DNA of 24,102 nt. It comes from a candidate division WOR-3 bacterium. Lineage in GTDB: Bacteria; Hydrothermota; Tepidihabitantia; Tepidihabitantales; Tepidihabitantaceae. Location: NCBI GenBank assembly GCA_011049385.1, contig DSBX01000201.1, positions 1 through 24,102 of the forward strand, in the 5' to 3' direction. A program made the position numbers and the translations under genes. The notes beneath the pieces are model-generated. The model was not told the DNA's origin and did not search any database. It worked only from the letters and a program-made list of their open reading frames with translations. Positions within the stretch are counted from its first letter, which is position 1; every line of letters starts with the position of its first letter. This document shows, in pieces, positions 1,211 through 11,590 of this stretch.

Positions 1211-1588
1211 ATGATACGCGTTTCTACTTTCCTCGCGCTGGCCGCCGGCGTGTTGTTCTTCGCGGCCTGTCCCGGTCCCCAGAATGCCGCCTCGACCGGG
1301 GTTGAGCAGGCCCCGGCAGGGGCACCGCCCGGACAGGTGGATGCGTCCGACCCGATTGCGGTGTTGACCGCGAATCTGCACCGGCTCGAGGAGCGCCTGG
1401 CCCGGTACCGCGCCGAGAGACCGGAAAACCCGGAGCTGGACCGGGCCGCGAGCCTGCTCGATGAGGCCCGGGCCGGTATCGCGGAACTGCGCGAAACGAC
1501 CCCGGAGCCGGAGGAGATGCCGTTGAAACTGCACGCGGTCAACAGCCGGTTCTACGAGTTCGAGCAGTTGCTCCCGCCCCTTGACTGA
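1211..1588 (+). CDS. Hypothetical helical lipoprotein (125 aa)
   Basis: Hydrophobic N-terminus ending in lipobox-like FAAC, a low-complexity linker, then amphipathic helices. Confidence 0.7.
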   Translation: MIRVSTFLALAAGVLFFAACPGPQNAASTGVEQAPAGAPPGQVDASDPIAVLTANLHRLEERLARYRAERPENPELDRAASLLDEARAGIAELRETTPEPEEMPLKLHAVNSRFYEFEQLLPPLD

Positions 1589-1589
1589 T

Positions 1590-1606
1590 TGCCGACCGGG
1601 TCGGCA
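1590..1606. promoter_or_regulatory. Palindrome TGCCGACC-G-GGTCGGCA (terminator-like hairpin or operator) just upstream of the rpmH promoter
   Basis: Perfect inverted repeat seen in the sequence. Confidence 0.4.
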
Positions 1607-1612
1607 GGTGTC

Positions 1613-1641
1613 TTGATATTCCAGAGAGTTATGCCTATAAT
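1613..1641 (+). promoter_or_regulatory. rpmH operon promoter TTGATA-N17-TATAAT
   Basis: Perfect -10, near-perfect -35, 17-bp spacer; SD AAGGAG follows. Confidence 0.85.
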
Positions 1642-1661
1642 GGACGACTAAGGAGCACGAA

Positions 1662-1799
1662 ATGCCTAAGAGGACATATCAACCTTCAAATACCAGCCGT
1701 AAGCGGACGCACGGCTTCCGGGCCCGCAACAAGAAGCGTAGTGGGCGGGCGGTCCTGCGCCGGCGCCGGGCCAAGGGACGCAAGCGCCTGGCGGTATGA
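1662..1799 (+). CDS. rpmH: 50S ribosomal protein L34 (45 aa; absent from the ORF track)
   Basis: Manual translation [45 protein letters not shown]; position before rnpA. Confidence 0.98.
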
Positions 1800-1823
1800 G
1801 CCCGAGCCGGGCAGTTGATTCCG

Positions 1824-2204
1824 ATGATGGAGACGCTGAAGCGGAGCGAGGTTCTGCGCGGGCGCCGGGATGTCGCGCTGGTCTTCCGCCAGGGGCGGAG
1901 AGTTCCCGGCGGGCCGGTCTATCTGCGCTGGCGACGGCGGCCGGAGAGCGAAACCGACCGTGACCGCTTGCCTCCGCGCCAGGTGGCGTTTCTGCTGGCA
2001 CGCGGCGTGGGCAACGCGGTGCGCCGTAACCGGCTGAAGCGGCGACTGCGCGAGCTGTACCGCCGCAATAAGCATCGCTTCCCCGAGGGCCGGGACTATC
2101 TGTTGCACGCCGGGCCCGGAGCCGGCGACCTCAGCTTCGCGGAGCTTGACCGCCGGGTGGCGGGCTTCTGCCGCCCCCTGCGGCCGAGGGGCGAGAGCGG
2201 GTGA
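1824..2204 (+). CDS. rnpA: Ribonuclease P protein component
   Basis: RNR motif NAVRRNRLKRRLRE; synteny. Start uncertain (1815/1824/1827). Confidence 0.95.
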   Translation: MMETLKRSEVLRGRRDVALVFRQGRRVPGGPVYLRWRRRPESETDRDRLPPRQVAFLLARGVGNAVRRNRLKRRLRELYRRNKHRFPEGRDYLLHAGPGAGDLSFAELDRRVAGFCRPLRPRGESG

Positions 2205-2509
2205 CGCGCCTGCTGTCCGCGGCCATCGGGCTGGCGATTCGCTGTTACCAGTATACTTTCGGCGCGGTTCTGCCCGGGGCCTGCCGGTTCGAGCCGAGTT
2301 GTTCGAACTATGCGCTCGAGGCGGTCGAGAGGCACGGCCCGGCCCGGGGATGCGTGCTGGTGTTGAGACGGCTTGCGCGCTGTCATCCTTTCGGCGGCTC
2401 CGGGTTTGACCCGGTGCCGGAACGGCGCGGCGGAGCGGACCTGGAGTGCGGAGAGATTGGGAGTGGAATGCGGGCCGTGCAGACGGCAGAGGAGAAGACG
2501 ACCGGATGA
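2201..2509 (+). CDS. yidD: Membrane protein insertion efficiency factor YidD
   Basis: CRFEPSCSNY and RCHPFGGSGFDPVP motifs; synteny. Confidence 0.95.
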   Translation: MTRLLSAAIGLAIRCYQYTFGAVLPGACRFEPSCSNYALEAVERHGPARGCVLVLRRLARCHPFGGSGFDPVPERRGGADLECGEIGSGMRAVQTAEEKTTG

Positions 2510-4125
2510 ACAAAGACACGCTCCGGATGGCCATCGGCTTCGCGGTTATCGTTGGCATCTTGATAATCTGGCAGATTGCCTTCCGTCCGACGCCGCCCGC
2601 GCCCGCGCCGGTCGCGGCCGAGGCGACGCCCGGTGAACCGGCGGCGGAGACCGCGCCCCCGGTCCTGACGCCCACGCCCGTCGAAGCCGAGAGCCCGCCC
2701 GAGCCGTCCGCGCCCGCGGCCTTCGCTTTCGAGCCGGCGCCGGACACGACGGTCACGCTCGAGAACGACGTGCTCCGGCTGACCTTTTCTTCGACCGGCG
2801 GGGCGTTGCGCTCGGCCTGGCTGAAGGAGTACGATGCCGAGCTGGTGCCCGAGGGTGCCCTGCTCTTTTCCGCCGGGCTTGAGACGCCCGATGGCCGCGT
2901 CGGACTGGCCGAGGCGCCCTTCCGGGTCCGGGCCGAGAGGATGAGCGTGACGTTTTCGGTCGGCGATGACTCCTTCGGCCTGGAACGGACGTTCACGCTC
3001 GATACCGGCTACACCGTCCGGCTGGCCGGCGTCGCGCGGGGTGCAACCGGCATCGCCCTCGACTGCCCGGCCGGTATCGCGGTGACCGAGGAGAACGTCA
3101 AGGAGGACCTCACCCACTTCCATTTCTATTCGCGCAGTGCGGGCAAGGTCCGGACCCGGACGGTGCGCAACCTGAAGGAACCGGTTGCCGATACCGTGCC
3201 GGTGGACTGGGTCGGGTTCAAGAACAAGTATTTCTTCGTTGCCGCGTTCGATACCGCAAACGGCTTCGATTCGATGCTGGTGAGCGCGGTGGGCGAGGAC
3301 CGGATTGCGGTCAGCGCGGTCGCTTGGGCCGGGGAGACGGAGGCGACGCTCTACCTCGGGCCCCTGGAGTACAACCGCCTCAGCCGCTTCGGGCTCGGGT
3401 TCGAGGGCGCGGTCAGCCTCGGCTTCGTCAAGCCGGTTGCGCTGGCGATTCTCTGGCTGCTCAACTTCCTTTACCGCATCTTCGGCAACTGGGGCCTGGC
3501 CATCATCGTCTTCGCCATCATCATGAAGGCGCTGTTCTACCCGCTGACGCGGACCCAGACCGGCCAGATGCGGCGGATGCAGCAGCTCCAGCCCAAGCTC
3601 AAGGAGCTGAAGAAGAAGTTCAAGGACGACCCGCAGGCGCTGAACCAGGAGACGATGCAGCTCTACAAGCTGTACAAGATAAACCCGCTGTCGGGCTGTC
3701 TGCCGATGCTGGTCCAGCTCCCGGTTTTCTGGGCGCTCTATTCGGTGTTGCGCAATTTCATCGAACTGCGGGGCGCGGGCTTCGTGCTCTGGCTCAACGA
3801 CCTGTCCCAGCCCGACACTCTTTTCGGGCACCTGCCATTCTTCGGGAACCCGGCCATCGGCCTGCTCCCGATTCTGATGGGGGTCTCCTTCATCGCCCAG
3901 AACATGCTGACCTCGGCCGACAAGAAGAACTGGGCGATGACGATCATCTTCCCCATCTTTATAACTGTAATCTTCCTTAATTTCCCCAGCGGATTGCAGT
4001 TGTACTGGTTCATGTATAATGTGCTCTCGATTGTGGAGAGCCTGATAGGACTCAAGGGAGGAACGCCATGGACGAAGAGAAAAGGCATGAGGGAGGCGGT
4101 TCCGGCCCCGACCGGGAGAGTGTAG
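2506..4125 (+). CDS. yidC: Membrane protein insertase YidC
   Basis: N-terminal TM, periplasmic domain, GNWGLAII, GCLPMLVQLPVFWALY, WLNDLSQPD, FPSGLQLYW; ATGA overlap with yidD stop. Confidence 0.97.
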   Translation: MNKDTLRMAIGFAVIVGILIIWQIAFRPTPPAPAPVAAEATPGEPAAETAPPVLTPTPVEAESPPEPSAPAAFAFEPAPDTTVTLENDVLRLTFSSTGGALRSAWLKEYDAELVPEGALLFSAGLETPDGRVGLAEAPFRVRAERMSVTFSVGDDSFGLERTFTLDTGYTVRLAGVARGATGIALDCPAGIAVTEENVKEDLTHFHFYSRSAGKVRTRTVRNLKEPVADTVPVDWVGFKNKYFFVAAFDTANGFDSMLVSAVGEDRIAVSAVAWAGETEATLYLGPLEYNRLSRFGLGFEGAVSLGFVKPVALAILWLLNFLYRIFGNWGLAIIVFAIIMKALFYPLTRTQTGQMRRMQQLQPKLKELKKKFKDDPQALNQETMQLYKLYKINPLSGCLPMLVQLPVFWALYSVLRNFIELRGAGFVLWLNDLSQPDTLFGHLPFFGNPAIGLLPILMGVSFIAQNMLTSADKKNWAMTIIFPIFITVIFLNFPSGLQLYWFMYNVLSIVESLIGLKGGTPWTKRKGMREAVPAPTGRV

Positions 4126-6009: not shown

Positions 6010-6419
6010 TGCAACTGGAACGATTGATTCTGTACGTCCTTCCCGGCCGGGAGGGTGAGGCGGCGGCCGGCTGGGCGCTGGCGCTGGCGCGGCGGCTCGG
6101 AGCCCGGGTGTTCGCGGTTCACGCCGTTGACGACCGGGAGCAGACCGCCGGCGACCAAGAGAGCGAGGAGGCGGCCTGGAAGATACTGTACGAAGTCGAA
6201 GACGATGCGTTCGAAGAGGACGTGAAGCTCTCGTTGGTGCTGGAGCAGGGCGACCCGGTCGAGCGGCTGGTCGAGGTCGTTGCCGGCTATTCGGGCGACC
6301 TGGTCGTCGTGCCGGCCGGCGCCTTTCCACCGGCCGAACTGGTCCGTCGCAGTCCGGCCCCGGTGGTTTTCGTAGGCTCTGCCGCCGCCGAAGCGGCGCG
6401 CGGTTTCAAGGAGGAATGA
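6006..6419 (+). CDS. Universal stress protein (USP) family
   Basis: ALALARRLGARVFAVHAVD, EQGDPVERLVEV, DLVVV, LVRRSPAPVVFV pattern. Confidence 0.8.
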   Translation: MMQLERLILYVLPGREGEAAAGWALALARRLGARVFAVHAVDDREQTAGDQESEEAAWKILYEVEDDAFEEDVKLSLVLEQGDPVERLVEVVAGYSGDLVVVPAGAFPPAELVRRSPAPVVFVGSAAAEAARGFKEE

Positions 6420-6874
6420 TGACGAAAGTATCGGAGCTGCTTGCGCGCGACGCAATCCTGCTCCAGATAGAATCCCGCGACAAGATTGACGTAATCCGCG
6501 AACTGTCCCGGCCGCTGATTGAGAACGGCACGGTAACCGACGAGGAAACCTTCTTCGAAGCGATTCTGCGCCGGGAGAACCTCGAAAGCACCGGCATCGG
6601 GCTGGGCGTGGCGATTCCCCACGCCCGCACCCCGGCGGTCGCGCGGACCGCGCTGGCGTTCGGACGGTCCGAGGCCGGAGTGGATTTCAACAGCCTGGAC
6701 GGCAAGCCCGCGTTCCTGGTTTTCCTCATCGCCGCGCCCGAGGACCGCAAGACCGAGTACATCATGACCCTGGCCCGGGTTTCCCGGCTGATGCGCCGCG
6801 ACGAGGCACGCATCGCGCTGAACCGGGCCCAGACGCCGAACGAGGTCATCGCGGTCGTCCAGCAGTACGAGTGA
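6416..6874 (+). CDS. PTS EIIA component, fructose/mannitol/nitrogen-regulatory (PtsN-like) family
   Basis: RRENLESTGIGLGVAIPHAR with phospho-His; GVDFNSLDGKP. Confidence 0.92.
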   Translation: MMTKVSELLARDAILLQIESRDKIDVIRELSRPLIENGTVTDEETFFEAILRRENLESTGIGLGVAIPHARTPAVARTALAFGRSEAGVDFNSLDGKPAFLVFLIAAPEDRKTEYIMTLARVSRLMRRDEARIALNRAQTPNEVIAVVQQYE

Positions 6875-8694: not shown

Positions 8695-9930
8695 ATGAAG
8701 ATGACCCGAGTTTACCTGGACCACGCGGCCGCAACGCCGCTCCTGCCCGAGGCGCGGGAGGCGATGGTGCCGTTCCTGGACGGAGAGTTCGGCAACCCGG
8801 CCAGCATTCACGCCCGGGGTGAGAAGCCGCGGGCCGCGGTCAAGGATGCCCGGGAAAAGGTCGCCGGCCTGGTCGGGGCCCGGCCGGAGGGTATCATCTT
8901 CACCGCCTCGGCCTCGGAGAGCAACAACCACGCGCTCAAGGGTCTGGCGGCGGGGAGGGCCGGGCATATCATCGTCTCGGCCATCGAGCACGTCTCGGTG
9001 CTGGAGCCGGCCCGGACTCTCGCCAAGGCGGGTTTCGAACTGACCGAACTGCCGGTTGACGGCGAGGGCCGGGTCCGACCCGAATCGCTGACCGCGGCCA
9101 TCCGGCCCGATACCGTGCTGGTTTCGGTGATGCACGCCAACAACGAAGTCGGCGCGGTGCAGGATATTGCCGAACTGGCCAGGGTTGCGCACGAACGTGA
9201 AGTGCCTTTCCATTCCGACGGGACCGCCGCGGTCGGCCGCCTGCCGGTGGACCTCGGCGCGCTGGGGGTGGACGTCTACTCCTTCGCGGCCCAGTCGGTC
9301 TACGGCCCGAAGGGCGCGGCCGCCCTGTACATCCGGCCCGGGACCCGGATCAGGCCGCTGGTCGAAGGCGGTTTTCAGGAACGCAACCGCCGGGCCGGCA
9401 CCGAGAATGTCGCCGCGATCGCCGGTTTCGGGGCCGCGGCCGAAGTGACCGCCCGCCGCCTCGCCGACTGGTCGGGGGAGATGAGCCGGCTCGCCGACCG
9501 TATCTTCACAGAACTGCCGTCAAGGCTGGACCGGCTGGTGTTCACCGGCCCCGGGACCGGCCGGCTGCCGGGTCACGTCTCGGTCTGCGTCGAATTCGTC
9601 GAGGGTGAGGCGATGCTGTTGTCGCTGGACGATGAGGGAATCGCCGCGGCCTCGGGTTCGTCGTGTACCGCCCGCACACTCAAGGTGTCCCACGTCCTGT
9701 TGGCAATGGGCCTGCCCCACACACTGGCCCAGACTTCGCTCGTGCTGACCCTGGGCCGGGACACGACCGACGCCGGGGTGGACCACCTGCTGGAAAAACT
9801 GCCGCCGATCGTCATCCGGCTCAGGCGGATGTCTCCGCTCTACGCGAAGCTCGAACGGGGCGAGGACCCGTACGCGGCCGCGGCCGGCGCGGCCTGTGAA
9901 GACGACCATTCGACCGTGGAGGAAGGCTAA
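8695..9930 (+). CDS. iscS: IscS/NifS-like protein lacking the PLP Schiff-base Lys (probable non-catalytic cysteine desulfurase homologue)
   Basis: Group I fold motifs YLDHAAATP, FGNPAS, MHANNEVG, YGPKG, RAGTENV, SGSSCT. The canonical SGHK reads AAQS. Confidence 0.9.
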   Translation: MKMTRVYLDHAAATPLLPEAREAMVPFLDGEFGNPASIHARGEKPRAAVKDAREKVAGLVGARPEGIIFTASASESNNHALKGLAAGRAGHIIVSAIEHVSVLEPARTLAKAGFELTELPVDGEGRVRPESLTAAIRPDTVLVSVMHANNEVGAVQDIAELARVAHEREVPFHSDGTAAVGRLPVDLGALGVDVYSFAAQSVYGPKGAAALYIRPGTRIRPLVEGGFQERNRRAGTENVAAIAGFGAAAEVTARRLADWSGEMSRLADRIFTELPSRLDRLVFTGPGTGRLPGHVSVCVEFVEGEAMLLSLDDEGIAAASGSSCTARTLKVSHVLLAMGLPHTLAQTSLVLTLGRDTTDAGVDHLLEKLPPIVIRLRRMSPLYAKLERGEDPYAAAAGAACEDDHSTVEEG

Positions 9931-10304
9931 TGTATTCGGACAAGGTCATGGACCATTTCCGCAACCCGCGGCACGTCGGCGCAGTCGAGAACCCGGACGG
10001 CGTGGGCGAGGTCGGCAACCCGGTTTGCGGCGATATGATGAGTTTCTCGATAAGGGTGCGTGACGGCGTCCTGAAGGATGTCAGGTTCCGAACCTTCGGC
10101 TGCGGCGCCGCGATTGCGGTCTCTTCGATGGTGAGCGAGATGGCCATCGGCAAGACGATAGAGGAAGCGCTGGCGATGAGCAACGCGGACGTCGCCAGGG
10201 AACTCGGCGGCCTGCCGCCCAACAAACTGCACTGCTCGAACTTGGGTGCCGACGCGCTGCACGCGGCCATCCGGAACTACCTCGAGAAACAGAAGGAGGC
10301 GTAG
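9930..10304 (+). CDS. iscU: Fe-S cluster scaffold IscU/NifU N-terminal type
   Basis: YSDKVMDHFRNPR, CGD, FGCGAAIA, LPPNKLHC; TAATG coupling to iscS. Confidence 0.97.
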   Translation: MYSDKVMDHFRNPRHVGAVENPDGVGEVGNPVCGDMMSFSIRVRDGVLKDVRFRTFGCGAAIAVSSMVSEMAIGKTIEEALAMSNADVARELGGLPPNKLHCSNLGADALHAAIRNYLEKQKEA

Positions 10305-10306
10305 TG

Positions 10307-10483
10307 ATGGAACGTGAGTGCGGTTGTCCCTACTGCGACGGTATGACCGACACCGGGGTCTGTGCGCCGTGCGGGGTCAAGCTTGTCCTTTGCCCGGACT
10401 GCGCCACCCCCCAGCCGCGCGAGGCGACGGTCTGCGCCGCCTGCGGCGCGGCCCTTTCCCAGCAAGACCAGGACAAGGAGTGA
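10307..10483 (+). CDS. 58-aa Cys-rich double zinc-ribbon-like microprotein (absent from the ORF track)
   Basis: MERECGCPYCDGMTDTGVCAPCGVKLVLCPDCATPQPREATVCAACGAALSQQDQDKE; SD AAGGAGG; fills the iscU-grx gap with 2-nt spacers on both sides. Confidence 0.85.
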   Translation: MERECGCPYCDGMTDTGVCAPCGVKLVLCPDCATPQPREATVCAACGAALSQQDQDKE

Positions 10484-10485
10484 CA

Positions 10486-10764
10486 ATGCCGACAGCAAAA
10501 GAGCCCGGTGCGAACAAGAAGCACAAGGTCAGGCTCTACGGCCTTTCGACCTGCGGCTGGTGCCGCAAGACCAAGGAACTGCTCGACTCCCAGCAGGTCG
10601 AGTACGAGTATGTCTACGTTGACCAGTGTGAGGGCGACGAGCGGGCGGAGTTGACCGCCGCGGTCCGTGCGCTCAACCCGCGTGGTTCCTTCCCGACCGT
10701 CGAGATTGACGGCGAGGTGGTGGTCGGCTACGACGACGACCGGATCCTCGAGTTGCTGGGCTGA
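10486..10764 (+). CDS. Glutaredoxin/NrdH-like redoxin (CGWC), 92 aa
   Basis: LYGLSTCGWCRKTKELL, SFPTVEI, VVGYD; SD AAGGAG before ATG 10486. Confidence 0.92.
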   Translation: MPTAKEPGANKKHKVRLYGLSTCGWCRKTKELLDSQQVEYEYVYVDQCEGDERAELTAAVRALNPRGSFPTVEIDGEVVVGYDDDRILELLG

Positions 10765-11282
10765 TGGCCGGCGAGAAGCACCCGCCCGAGGTGCTCAAGC
10801 TCTACGAACGCCTGAAGCGCGTGGCGGTTGAGGGCGGGTACATGCTCAACCCGGACGAGGAGTTCACGCTCCGGCTAGTCCAGGGGTTGCAGGATAACAT
10901 CGGCCGTTTCGGTTACCCGGCCTGTCCCTGCCGTCTGGCCTACGGTGAGAAATCGAAGGATGTGGACCTCATCTGCCCTTGTTACTACCGCGACGCGGAC
11001 ATTGAGGAGTACGGTACCTGCTACTGCACGCTCTACGTCAACGAAGACTGGGTGAGCGGCAGGTTCCCGCACAAGAGCATCCCGGACCGGCGACCGGCCG
11101 ACTTCGTCCTGAACGGCTACGCCGAACCGGAGCCGGTGCGGCGGGCCGAAAGCGGCGGGCTTTCGCCTTCCCTGCCGGTCTGGCGATGCAAGGTCTGCGG
11201 CTACCTTGCCGCCCGCGATGAGCCGCCCGGCAAGTGCCCGATCTGCAAGGTGGGCAAGGAACGGTTCGAGAGGTTTCTCTAG
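10764..11282 (+). CDS. Ferredoxin:thioredoxin reductase catalytic-subunit homologue fused to a C-terminal rubredoxin-like domain (FDR-type)
   Basis: CPC...CPC...CYC motifs, then WRCKVCGY...CPIC. Confidence 0.92.
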   Translation: MAGEKHPPEVLKLYERLKRVAVEGGYMLNPDEEFTLRLVQGLQDNIGRFGYPACPCRLAYGEKSKDVDLICPCYYRDADIEEYGTCYCTLYVNEDWVSGRFPHKSIPDRRPADFVLNGYAEPEPVRRAESGGLSPSLPVWRCKVCGYLAARDEPPGKCPICKVGKERFERFL

Positions 11283-11284
11283 CG

Positions 11285-11590
11285 ATGGCGGGTCGGGTTA
11301 TCGCCGAACTGACCATCGTGCCGCTCGGCACCGGCTCGACCAGCCTCAGCCGCTGGGTCCGGATTGCCGAGAAGGTCATCACCGAAAGCGGGCTGGAGCA
11401 CACCCTTACACCGATGGGAACCTGCGTCCAGGGCGAGCTTGAAGACATCTTCGCGGTTGTCAAGCGGGCCCACGAGGCGCTGGCCGCGGCCGGTGCAGGC
11501 AGGATTTCCACCCATATCAAGCTCGACGACCGCCTGGACAAGGACCGCGTCATGCAGGACAAGATTGACGCGGTGCTGAAGCAGGACTGA
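11285..11590 (+). CDS. MTH1187-family thiamine-binding protein
   Basis: IAELTIVPLGTGSTSLS, LTPMGT, RISTHIKLDDRLDK pattern; start moved to ATG 11285. Confidence 0.88.
   Translation: MAGRVIAELTIVPLGTGSTSLSRWVRIAEKVITESGLEHTLTPMGTCVQGELEDIFAVVKRAHEALAAAGAGRISTHIKLDDRLDKDRVMQDKIDAVLKQD

Follow-up and report, generated by a model that had tools for sequence, protein, structure and literature searches.

The DNA analysed here, a stretch of 24,102 nucleotides from a candidate division WOR-3 bacterium (assembly GCA_011049385.1, contig DSBX01000201.1, positions 1–24,102), is referred to below as the window. At nt 8695–9930 of its plus strand lies an iscS-type gene for an IscS/NifS-type protein of 411 aa that lacks the Schiff-base lysine of cysteine desulfurases. 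It is followed directly by iscU, the gene for the iron-sulfur (Fe-S) cluster scaffold, and then by genes for a zinc-ribbon peptide, a glutaredoxin-like redoxin, an FDR-like protein and an MTH1187/YkoF-family protein, all on the same strand. The iscS-type gene probably encodes a non-catalytic protein that serves as a dedicated partner of IscU in the main Fe-S assembly system of the organism.

The reading frame ran from nt 8695 to 9930 without interruption, and a second possible start at nt 8701 would give a product of 409 aa. Its stop codon TAA (nt 9928–9930) shared one base, nt 9930, with the ATG of iscU (nt 9930–9932), and a Shine-Dalgarno-like sequence for iscU, GGAGGAAGG (nt 9918–9926, plus strand), was located within the 3′-end of the upstream gene; the intact open reading frame (ORF) coupled to iscU that an earlier note on this DNA had described was thus borne out. 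The product matched PF00266 (Aminotran_5) over residues 6–362 (E 2.5e-64), which places it in the class-V aminotransferase fold. Matches to cysteine desulfurases in PDB had E-values of 1e-111 to 1e-83, the nearest solved relatives being 9wep (E 5e-111), Archaeoglobus fulgidus IscS2 (4eb5, E 4e-100) and Escherichia coli IscS (1p3w, E 5e-83). All NCBIfam equivalog scores were under their cut-offs, with 428.8 versus 530.75 bits for TIGR03402 (NifS), 339.5 versus 548 for NF010611 and 330 versus 643.2 for TIGR02006.

Active-site residues and their conservation

In E. coli IscS, K206 forms the internal aldimine with pyridoxal 5′-phosphate (PLP), R354 binds the substrate carboxylate, and Q183, H205 and S203 are PLP contacts. 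Alignment with IscS of E. coli K-12 (from NC_000913.3), used as residue reference, showed, as did comparison with PDB relatives, that the Schiff-base Lys position was occupied by Ser201 (nt 9295–9297), the motif SFSGHK reading SFAAQS, with Ala198 for S203 and Gln200 for H205. The substrate-binding Arg was replaced by Val350 (nt 9742–9744; SIRFSLG to SLVLTLG), Q183 by Ala178 (nt 9226–9228; HVDATQS to HSDGTAA) and T12 by Ala13 (nt 8731–8733; DYSATTP to DHAAATP). Retained were His104 (as H99), Asp180 (D175), Thr243 (T236) and Asn154/155 (Asn149/150), together with the mobile-loop C328 as Cys324 (nt 9664–9666; SGSACT to SGSSCT). The substitutions at these four positions, the change of SGHK to AAQS and the retention of the His104, Asn155, Asp180 and Thr243 equivalents and of the loop Cys had all been claimed in the earlier note, and each was seen in the alignment. 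Thus, of the features of a catalytic type I cysteine desulfurase (EC 2.8.1.7), the fold and the loop Cys were found, whereas the Lys, the Arg and PLP contacts, and a sufficient equivalog score were not. Public databases label lysine-less proteins of this kind "cysteine desulfurase" throughout.

The protein was compared with its 120 best database homologues, which share 60–78% identity and belong to candidate division WOR-3 where named (clade set, n = 121). Scoring of homologues at K206, R354 and Q183, which the earlier note had suggested as a check, revealed a fixed pattern well outside what chance would give, with Ser201 in 120, Val, Leu or Met at position 350 in 121, and Ala178 in 120 members. 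The loop Cys of SGS-x-C was invariant, both in the clade (121/121) and in a wider set of 151 rows made up of the protein and 150 representatives at 50% identity. Position 200 was Met or Gln across the clade, position 198 was Pro in 91 members and Ala in the window's protein and 10 others, and position 150, corresponding to Asn155, was Tyr in 80. Judged from these residues, the protein is predicted to have no residue at the usual position with which PLP could form its internal aldimine, and the PLP pocket appears degraded across the whole clade; desulfurase activity, and PLP itself, would be expected to be absent.

The same set of residues has been lost from A. fulgidus IscS2 (PDB 4eb5, 4eb7 and 4hvk; D199K variant, 4r5f), a protein of type I fold in which alignment of 4eb5 with a close relative gave the motifs DYTSAKP, DATAS, SSND and LLLTLG, that is, T12 to Ala, Q183 to Ala, H205 to Asn, K206 to Asp and R354 to Leu. 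Its loop Cys is kept and its gene adjoins iscU, as in the window. In two reports, IscS2 is described as devoid of desulfurase activity, its Cys being a ligand to the [2Fe-2S] cluster of IscU (PMC7585200; PMC13066941). The resemblance to this protein proposed in the earlier note therefore held, as did the reading of the gene as a conserved, non-canonical iscS paired with iscU; the "more extensive active-site loss" by which it was to be set apart holds in comparison with E. coli but does not separate it from A. fulgidus IscS2, which has lost the same five positions. Differences lie elsewhere. IscS2 is archaeal and the WOR-3 protein bacterial; the clade of the latter has Ser instead of Asp at the Lys site, Gln or Met instead of Asn before it, and Ala or Pro at S203; about 25 residues are added at the C-terminus; and the operon continues with genes for a zinc-ribbon peptide, redoxin, FDR-like protein and MTH1187-family protein. 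Overall, the protein would appear to be a bacterial counterpart of the known archaeal lysine-less IscS.

The C-terminal extension (nt 9859–9927, plus strand) begins with GEDPY, in which G389, P392 and Y393 are near-invariant, and continues in an acidic/His run with the consensus Gly-Asp/Glu-x-Cys401-Glu-Asp/Glu-Glu/His-His among the 121 members. Position 401 (nt 9895–9897) was Cys in 87 members and His in 8. The tail, in which the earlier note had seen possible metal ligands, is thus a conserved feature of the clade; it was not present in P0209, a relative of the A. fulgidus type, or in the canonical paralogue encoded by the same genome.

Ordinary purifying selection acts on the gene, since the ratio of nonsynonymous to synonymous substitution rates (dN/dS) against the same-genus orthologue was 0.205 at dS 0.82, and the lysine-less orthologues of ten family genomes had a mean identity of 64%, where the same genome pairs gave 68% for the canonical paralogue. 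Intact frames were observed in every relative examined.

PDB 9wep, the nearest solved relative, is a Lys-bearing cysteine desulfurase of 406 aa deposited as a series of variants (9wep, 9wer, 9wew, 9wf8, 9wfb, 9wfe and 9wfy) with changes on or next to sites at which the lysine-less clade differs, for example Val at the R354 equivalent and Pro at the Q183 equivalent. No paper describing the series was found.

Linkage to iscU and other genes for Fe-S assembly

The iscU gene (nt 9930–10304, plus strand) encoded a scaffold of 124 aa (PF01592, E 1.6e-47; TIGR03419, 187.4 bits) with every cluster ligand present (Cys33, Asp35, Cys58, His101 and Cys102). When IscS-type and NifU_N genes were located relative to each other in WOR-3 genomes, iscU proved to lie directly 3′ of the lysine-less gene in all 11 family genomes compared, in both genomes of family f3, and in 9 of the 10 WOR-3 genomes carrying the Asn-Asp type described below. 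By contrast, the canonical paralogue was beside or near an iscU in only two of the genomes with both forms, whereas in lineages with canonical IscS alone the iscU gene adjoins it. In a genome of family f2 (G010, L119 nt 1126–2615), three tandem ORFs of about 160 aa precede a lysine-less gene of the Thr type, adjoined by neither iscU nor tusA.

Binding of IscU by the lysine-less protein, in an (IscS-IscU)2 complex of the A. fulgidus kind, may be expected. The fold of the protein was predicted with a predicted local distance difference test score (pLDDT) of about 93, and the predicted complex with IscU scored 0.75 against 0.01 for the best of three controls, in a prediction that may draw on solved IscS-IscU structures. 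It passed a mark that 51 of 78 solved complexes reach, as against 2 of 108 mismatched pairs. Since IscS-IscU complexes have already been solved, the predicted complex would indicate likeness rather than proof. Among the predicted IscU-contact residues, 69% were at least 98% invariant, versus 27% of all residues of the protein.

The source genome is 83% complete in 377 contigs, and absences from it are provisional. The search for a canonical IscS that the earlier note had called for disclosed a Lys- and Arg-bearing IscS/NifS paralogue on contig C22 (L001 nt 1489–2655, plus strand), in which SGHK, RFSLG and the loop Cys are kept and Ala takes the place of Q183. Its neighbors are a signal-peptidase-II-like gene on one side and a minus-strand ORF of 146 aa on the other, with no iscU nearby. 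This canonical form, recognized by the signature T-H-N-D-A-V-A-H-K-T-C-R, co-occurs with the lysine-less gene in the source genome. The same holds for 10 of 11 family genomes and for most of the remaining WOR-3 genomes with the gene; the two proteins share 38–46% identity. SufBD was not found in the source genome or in 38 of the 41 genomes of the order (31 of 34 of high quality), and IscA (PF01521) and HscB (PF07743) domains were not found in the source genome at its 83% completeness. It has one Nfu-type domain, on contig C264, and a second, divergent NifU_N protein (E 6e-27) on contig C178 (L010, about nt 560–2820), neighbored by MinD/ParA-like ATPases with 4Fe-4S motifs and further small Cys-rich proteins. 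Because of the linkage to iscU and because SUF, IscA and HscB were not found, the lysine-less IscS and IscU look like the main Fe-S assembly system of this organism. With its two-gene core, no Fdx partner in the operon and no HscAB or IscA detected in the 83% complete genome, the arrangement resembles the minimal ISC of MisS and MisU; the MIS system, however, is described as including a cysteine desulfurase (PMC12192291). The protein shares with canonical IscS/NifS and MisS the fold, the dimer-type sequence, the IscU docking surface and the loop Cys, but differs from them in lacking the residues of the catalytic enzyme and in scoring under the NifS and IscS cut-offs.

Downstream of iscU, nt 10,307–10,483 (plus strand) encoded a peptide of 58 aa with nine cysteines in paired CxxC motifs forming a double zinc ribbon. 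Its same-genus copy was syntenic, with 55% identity and a dN/dS of 0.42, and in another WOR-3 genome the same motif was found fused to IscU, as a C-terminal PF12773 (DZR) domain in a protein of 175 aa (L011 nt 6240–6767). The next two genes, both on the plus strand, encoded a glutaredoxin-like dithiol redoxin of 93 aa with a CGWC motif (nt 10,483–10,764; PF00462; TIGR02196, YruB family) and an FDR-like protein of 172 aa in which a ferredoxin:thioredoxin-reductase catalytic domain is fused to a rubredoxin domain (nt 10,764–11,282; PF02943 and PF21349; PDB 4tpu, E 2.5e-52). The last gene (nt 11,285–11,590, plus strand) encoded a small protein of the MTH1187/YkoF family (PF01910; TIGR00106, 104 bits; PDB 1lxn) that was syntenic in L011, L012 and L120. 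All six operon genes were syntenic in the same-genus genome, and in relatives the block was retained amid differing flanks, with the FDR gene about 0.9 kb 3′ of the lysine-less one in each of the 11 family genomes for which the two could be placed. As a general trait of lysine-less IscS, linkage to FDR was rejected, being found in this family only. No usable literature was found on FTR-like/rubredoxin proteins with glutaredoxin-like partners.

One genome of the same family, G120 (98% complete), was the sole sampled member without the lysine-less gene. No FDR-like match was found in it either, and none of its three NifU_N genes adjoins its canonical IscS.

Proposed role and alternative readings

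As noted above, a non-catalytic partner of IscU is the probable identity of the protein. It has kept the dimeric class-V fold, the predicted IscU-docking surface and the mobile-loop Cys324, and it has lost the Schiff-base Lys, three further PLP contacts and the substrate-holding Arg. With these losses it would be unable to strip sulfur from cysteine by itself. By analogy with A. fulgidus IscS2, Cys324 would most likely be the fourth ligand of a nascent [2Fe-2S] cluster on IscU, a carrier of sulfane sulfur to IscU, or both. The sulfur would come from elsewhere, either as free sulfide or as persulfide from the canonical paralogue on the other contig. Reducing equivalents could plausibly be provided by the FDR-like protein and the CxxC redoxin, in place of the classical ISC ferredoxin, their target being a persulfide on Cys324 or IscU or, alternatively, ligand thiols that have to be kept reduced. 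The acidic Cys/His tail, a conserved element, may assist in recruiting iron. For the reductase pair and the tail, linkage and conservation make these roles plausible.

Several points weigh against this interpretation. The genome is 83% complete, hence the absences are provisional. His99, Asp175, Thr236 and Asn149/150 are retained, so non-covalent binding of PLP or of another ligand is possible. The prediction of the complex may have passed by drawing on solved structures, and the Cys loop was not placed in it. The lysine-less gene does not adjoin iscU in families f2, f4 and f6, and linkage to FDR is limited to this family, the FDR gene being on other contigs in f2 and f4, so that the coupling could be incidental.

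A tentative alternative casts the protein as an adaptor. The canonical paralogue of contig C22 would make persulfide from cysteine and pass it to Cys324, or act in a mixed dimer, and the lysine-less protein would hand the sulfur on to IscU, making the pathway dependent on cysteine instead of sulfide. The regular company of the canonical paralogue agrees with this, as does the position of that copy without an adjoining iscU, apart from the two genomes mentioned. In the same direction points the result for TusA, which was found neither in the 83% complete source genome nor in 13 of the 18 family genomes. On the other hand, the paralogues are only 38–46% identical, linkage or fusion between them was not seen, the canonical copy may serve only tRNA thiolation or cofactor synthesis, and TusA/DsrE genes beside lysine-less IscS in other lineages suggest sulfur inputs other than a desulfurase. 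Since the canonical paralogue could supply cysteine-derived sulfur, the "sulfide-fed" pathway of the earlier note is unproven. Feeding by TusA/DsrE was also considered for the operon of the window and rejected on the same TusA result; in G041, the one TusA-bearing family genome with comparable positions, tusA is unlinked.

It is improbable that the protein only stabilizes or regulates IscU, holding or releasing it, with a chemically idle Cys. The predicted IscU interface is the most conserved surface, and the lysine-less IscS1 of Methanosarcina acetivorans was insoluble when expressed alone (PMC7585200), which hints at obligate pairing. However, a purely structural role would need no invariant SGS-x-C loop, and this is invariant in the 121 clade members and the 150 representatives; moreover, the cluster of the A. 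fulgidus complex is reported to have the Cys as a ligand (PMC13066941).

Slightly less credible still is a cysteine desulfurase that holds PLP non-covalently or through another Lys. In its favor, Asp175, which binds the pyridine, His99, which stacks, and Thr236 do not vary, the fold is confidently predicted (pLDDT about 93), and fixed Ser201 and Ala178 (120/121 each) could mean a pocket re-tuned rather than abandoned. But the Lys, the substrate Arg, Gln183, His205 and Ser203 have been replaced jointly, many clade members carry the bulky Tyr150 and Pro198, and the score is below every curated desulfurase cut-off. The sole invariant Lys of the clade, K330, lies in the Cys loop and is common to Lys-bearing relatives, and the Lys of GPKG, which the earlier note had named as a conceivable Schiff-base residue, is an unlikely stand-in, since 13 of 121 members and the same-genus orthologue have Arg there. 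Inactivity is reported for A. fulgidus IscS2, which shows the same losses (PMC7585200).

An assembly or sequencing error, which the earlier note had listed as a possible refutation, and a decaying gene can both be dismissed, as only the unusual residues speak for them, whereas the same residues recur in 120 homologues from independent assemblies, frames are intact in relatives and dN/dS is 0.21.

If the lysine-less protein is indeed a non-catalytic partner of IscU, it bears on how sulfur reaches Fe-S clusters in anaerobes living in sulfide and on why A. fulgidus retains an inactive IscS. The presumably inactive form is here no spare copy, being genetically tied to the scaffold in an order in which SUF was not detected in most genomes, and accounts of Fe-S biogenesis in these organisms must include it. 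A concrete, testable candidate for the missing reductive step is offered by the ferredoxin-dependent thiol reductase pair in the fixed operon, and the label "cysteine desulfurase" on lysine-less proteins misleads metabolic reconstructions.

Distribution and ancestry of lysine-less IscS

Among the best 150 representatives at 50% identity, 22 were without the Lys, and of the 21 of these that were full-length, 19 also lacked R354 and 16 had Ala at Q183. Named members came from Nitrospirae, Latescibacteria, Zixibacteria, Gemmatimonadota, Chloroflexota and one unclassified bacterium. In a sample of 100 IscS-type genes fetched from WOR-3 genomes, the lysine-less types had Ser at the Lys position in the family of the window, Thr, Gly or Gln in sister families, and an Asn-Asp pair similar to that of A. 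fulgidus in several other families. In archaea, M. acetivorans IscS1 (MA0808) is without the Lys and is encoded beside IscU1, the organism having Lys-bearing copies as well (PMC7585200); the WOR-3 protein has the same arrangement of a lysine-less IscS beside IscU with a Lys-bearing copy elsewhere, but is bacterial.

TusA/DsrE2-like neighbors of lysine-less IscS were found in BMS3Abin14, Latescibacteria (with ThiS, MoaE, Mrp and ThiI), Nitrospirae and two WOR-3 families. The gene orders included Rrf2, lysine-less IscS, IscU, TusA and DsrE (L116; Nitrospirae), and TusA, DsrE, lysine-less IscS and IscU (L117). For P0124, neither iscU nor tusA nor dsrE was found in the neighborhood, and that of P0123 was uninformative. 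The forms with TusA/DsrE2-like neighbors share with the protein of the window the joint loss of residues, the retained Cys and often the linkage to iscU, but in its family the operon is without TusA/DsrE and has a ferredoxin-dependent thiol reductase pair in that place. Lysine-less IscS might then, tentatively, be a widespread and ancient class of non-catalytic sulfur-relay adaptors docking on IscU, fed by TusA/DsrE in most lineages but served in this WOR-3 family by an electron path from ferredoxin through FDR to the CxxC redoxin together with an iron-binding tail, and providing the housekeeping Fe-S route in anaerobes without SUF.

In a quick maximum-likelihood tree, the protein fell in a group of 29 lysine-less rows and one Lys-bearing row. 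On the far side of a branch with 98% support lay 51 Lys-bearing rows and the clade of the A. fulgidus type (99%). The tree forces three or more state changes. One clade uniting every form that lacks both Lys and Arg was nevertheless not rejected by the approximately unbiased (AU) test (p 0.08), so that one origin shared with the A. fulgidus type is compatible with the data.

The 50%-identity representative P0126, a close relative, keeps the Lys and His205 while R354 is replaced by Leu and Q183 by Ala, and it groups with the lysine-less rows; it could represent an intermediate state. A further WOR-3 type, with Asp at H104, Thr at K206, and Arg354 and the loop Cys retained (L054, L106, L107 and L110, from genomes G107, G077, G025 and G049), formed its own clade beside Lys-bearing genes and is followed by an iscU-type gene.

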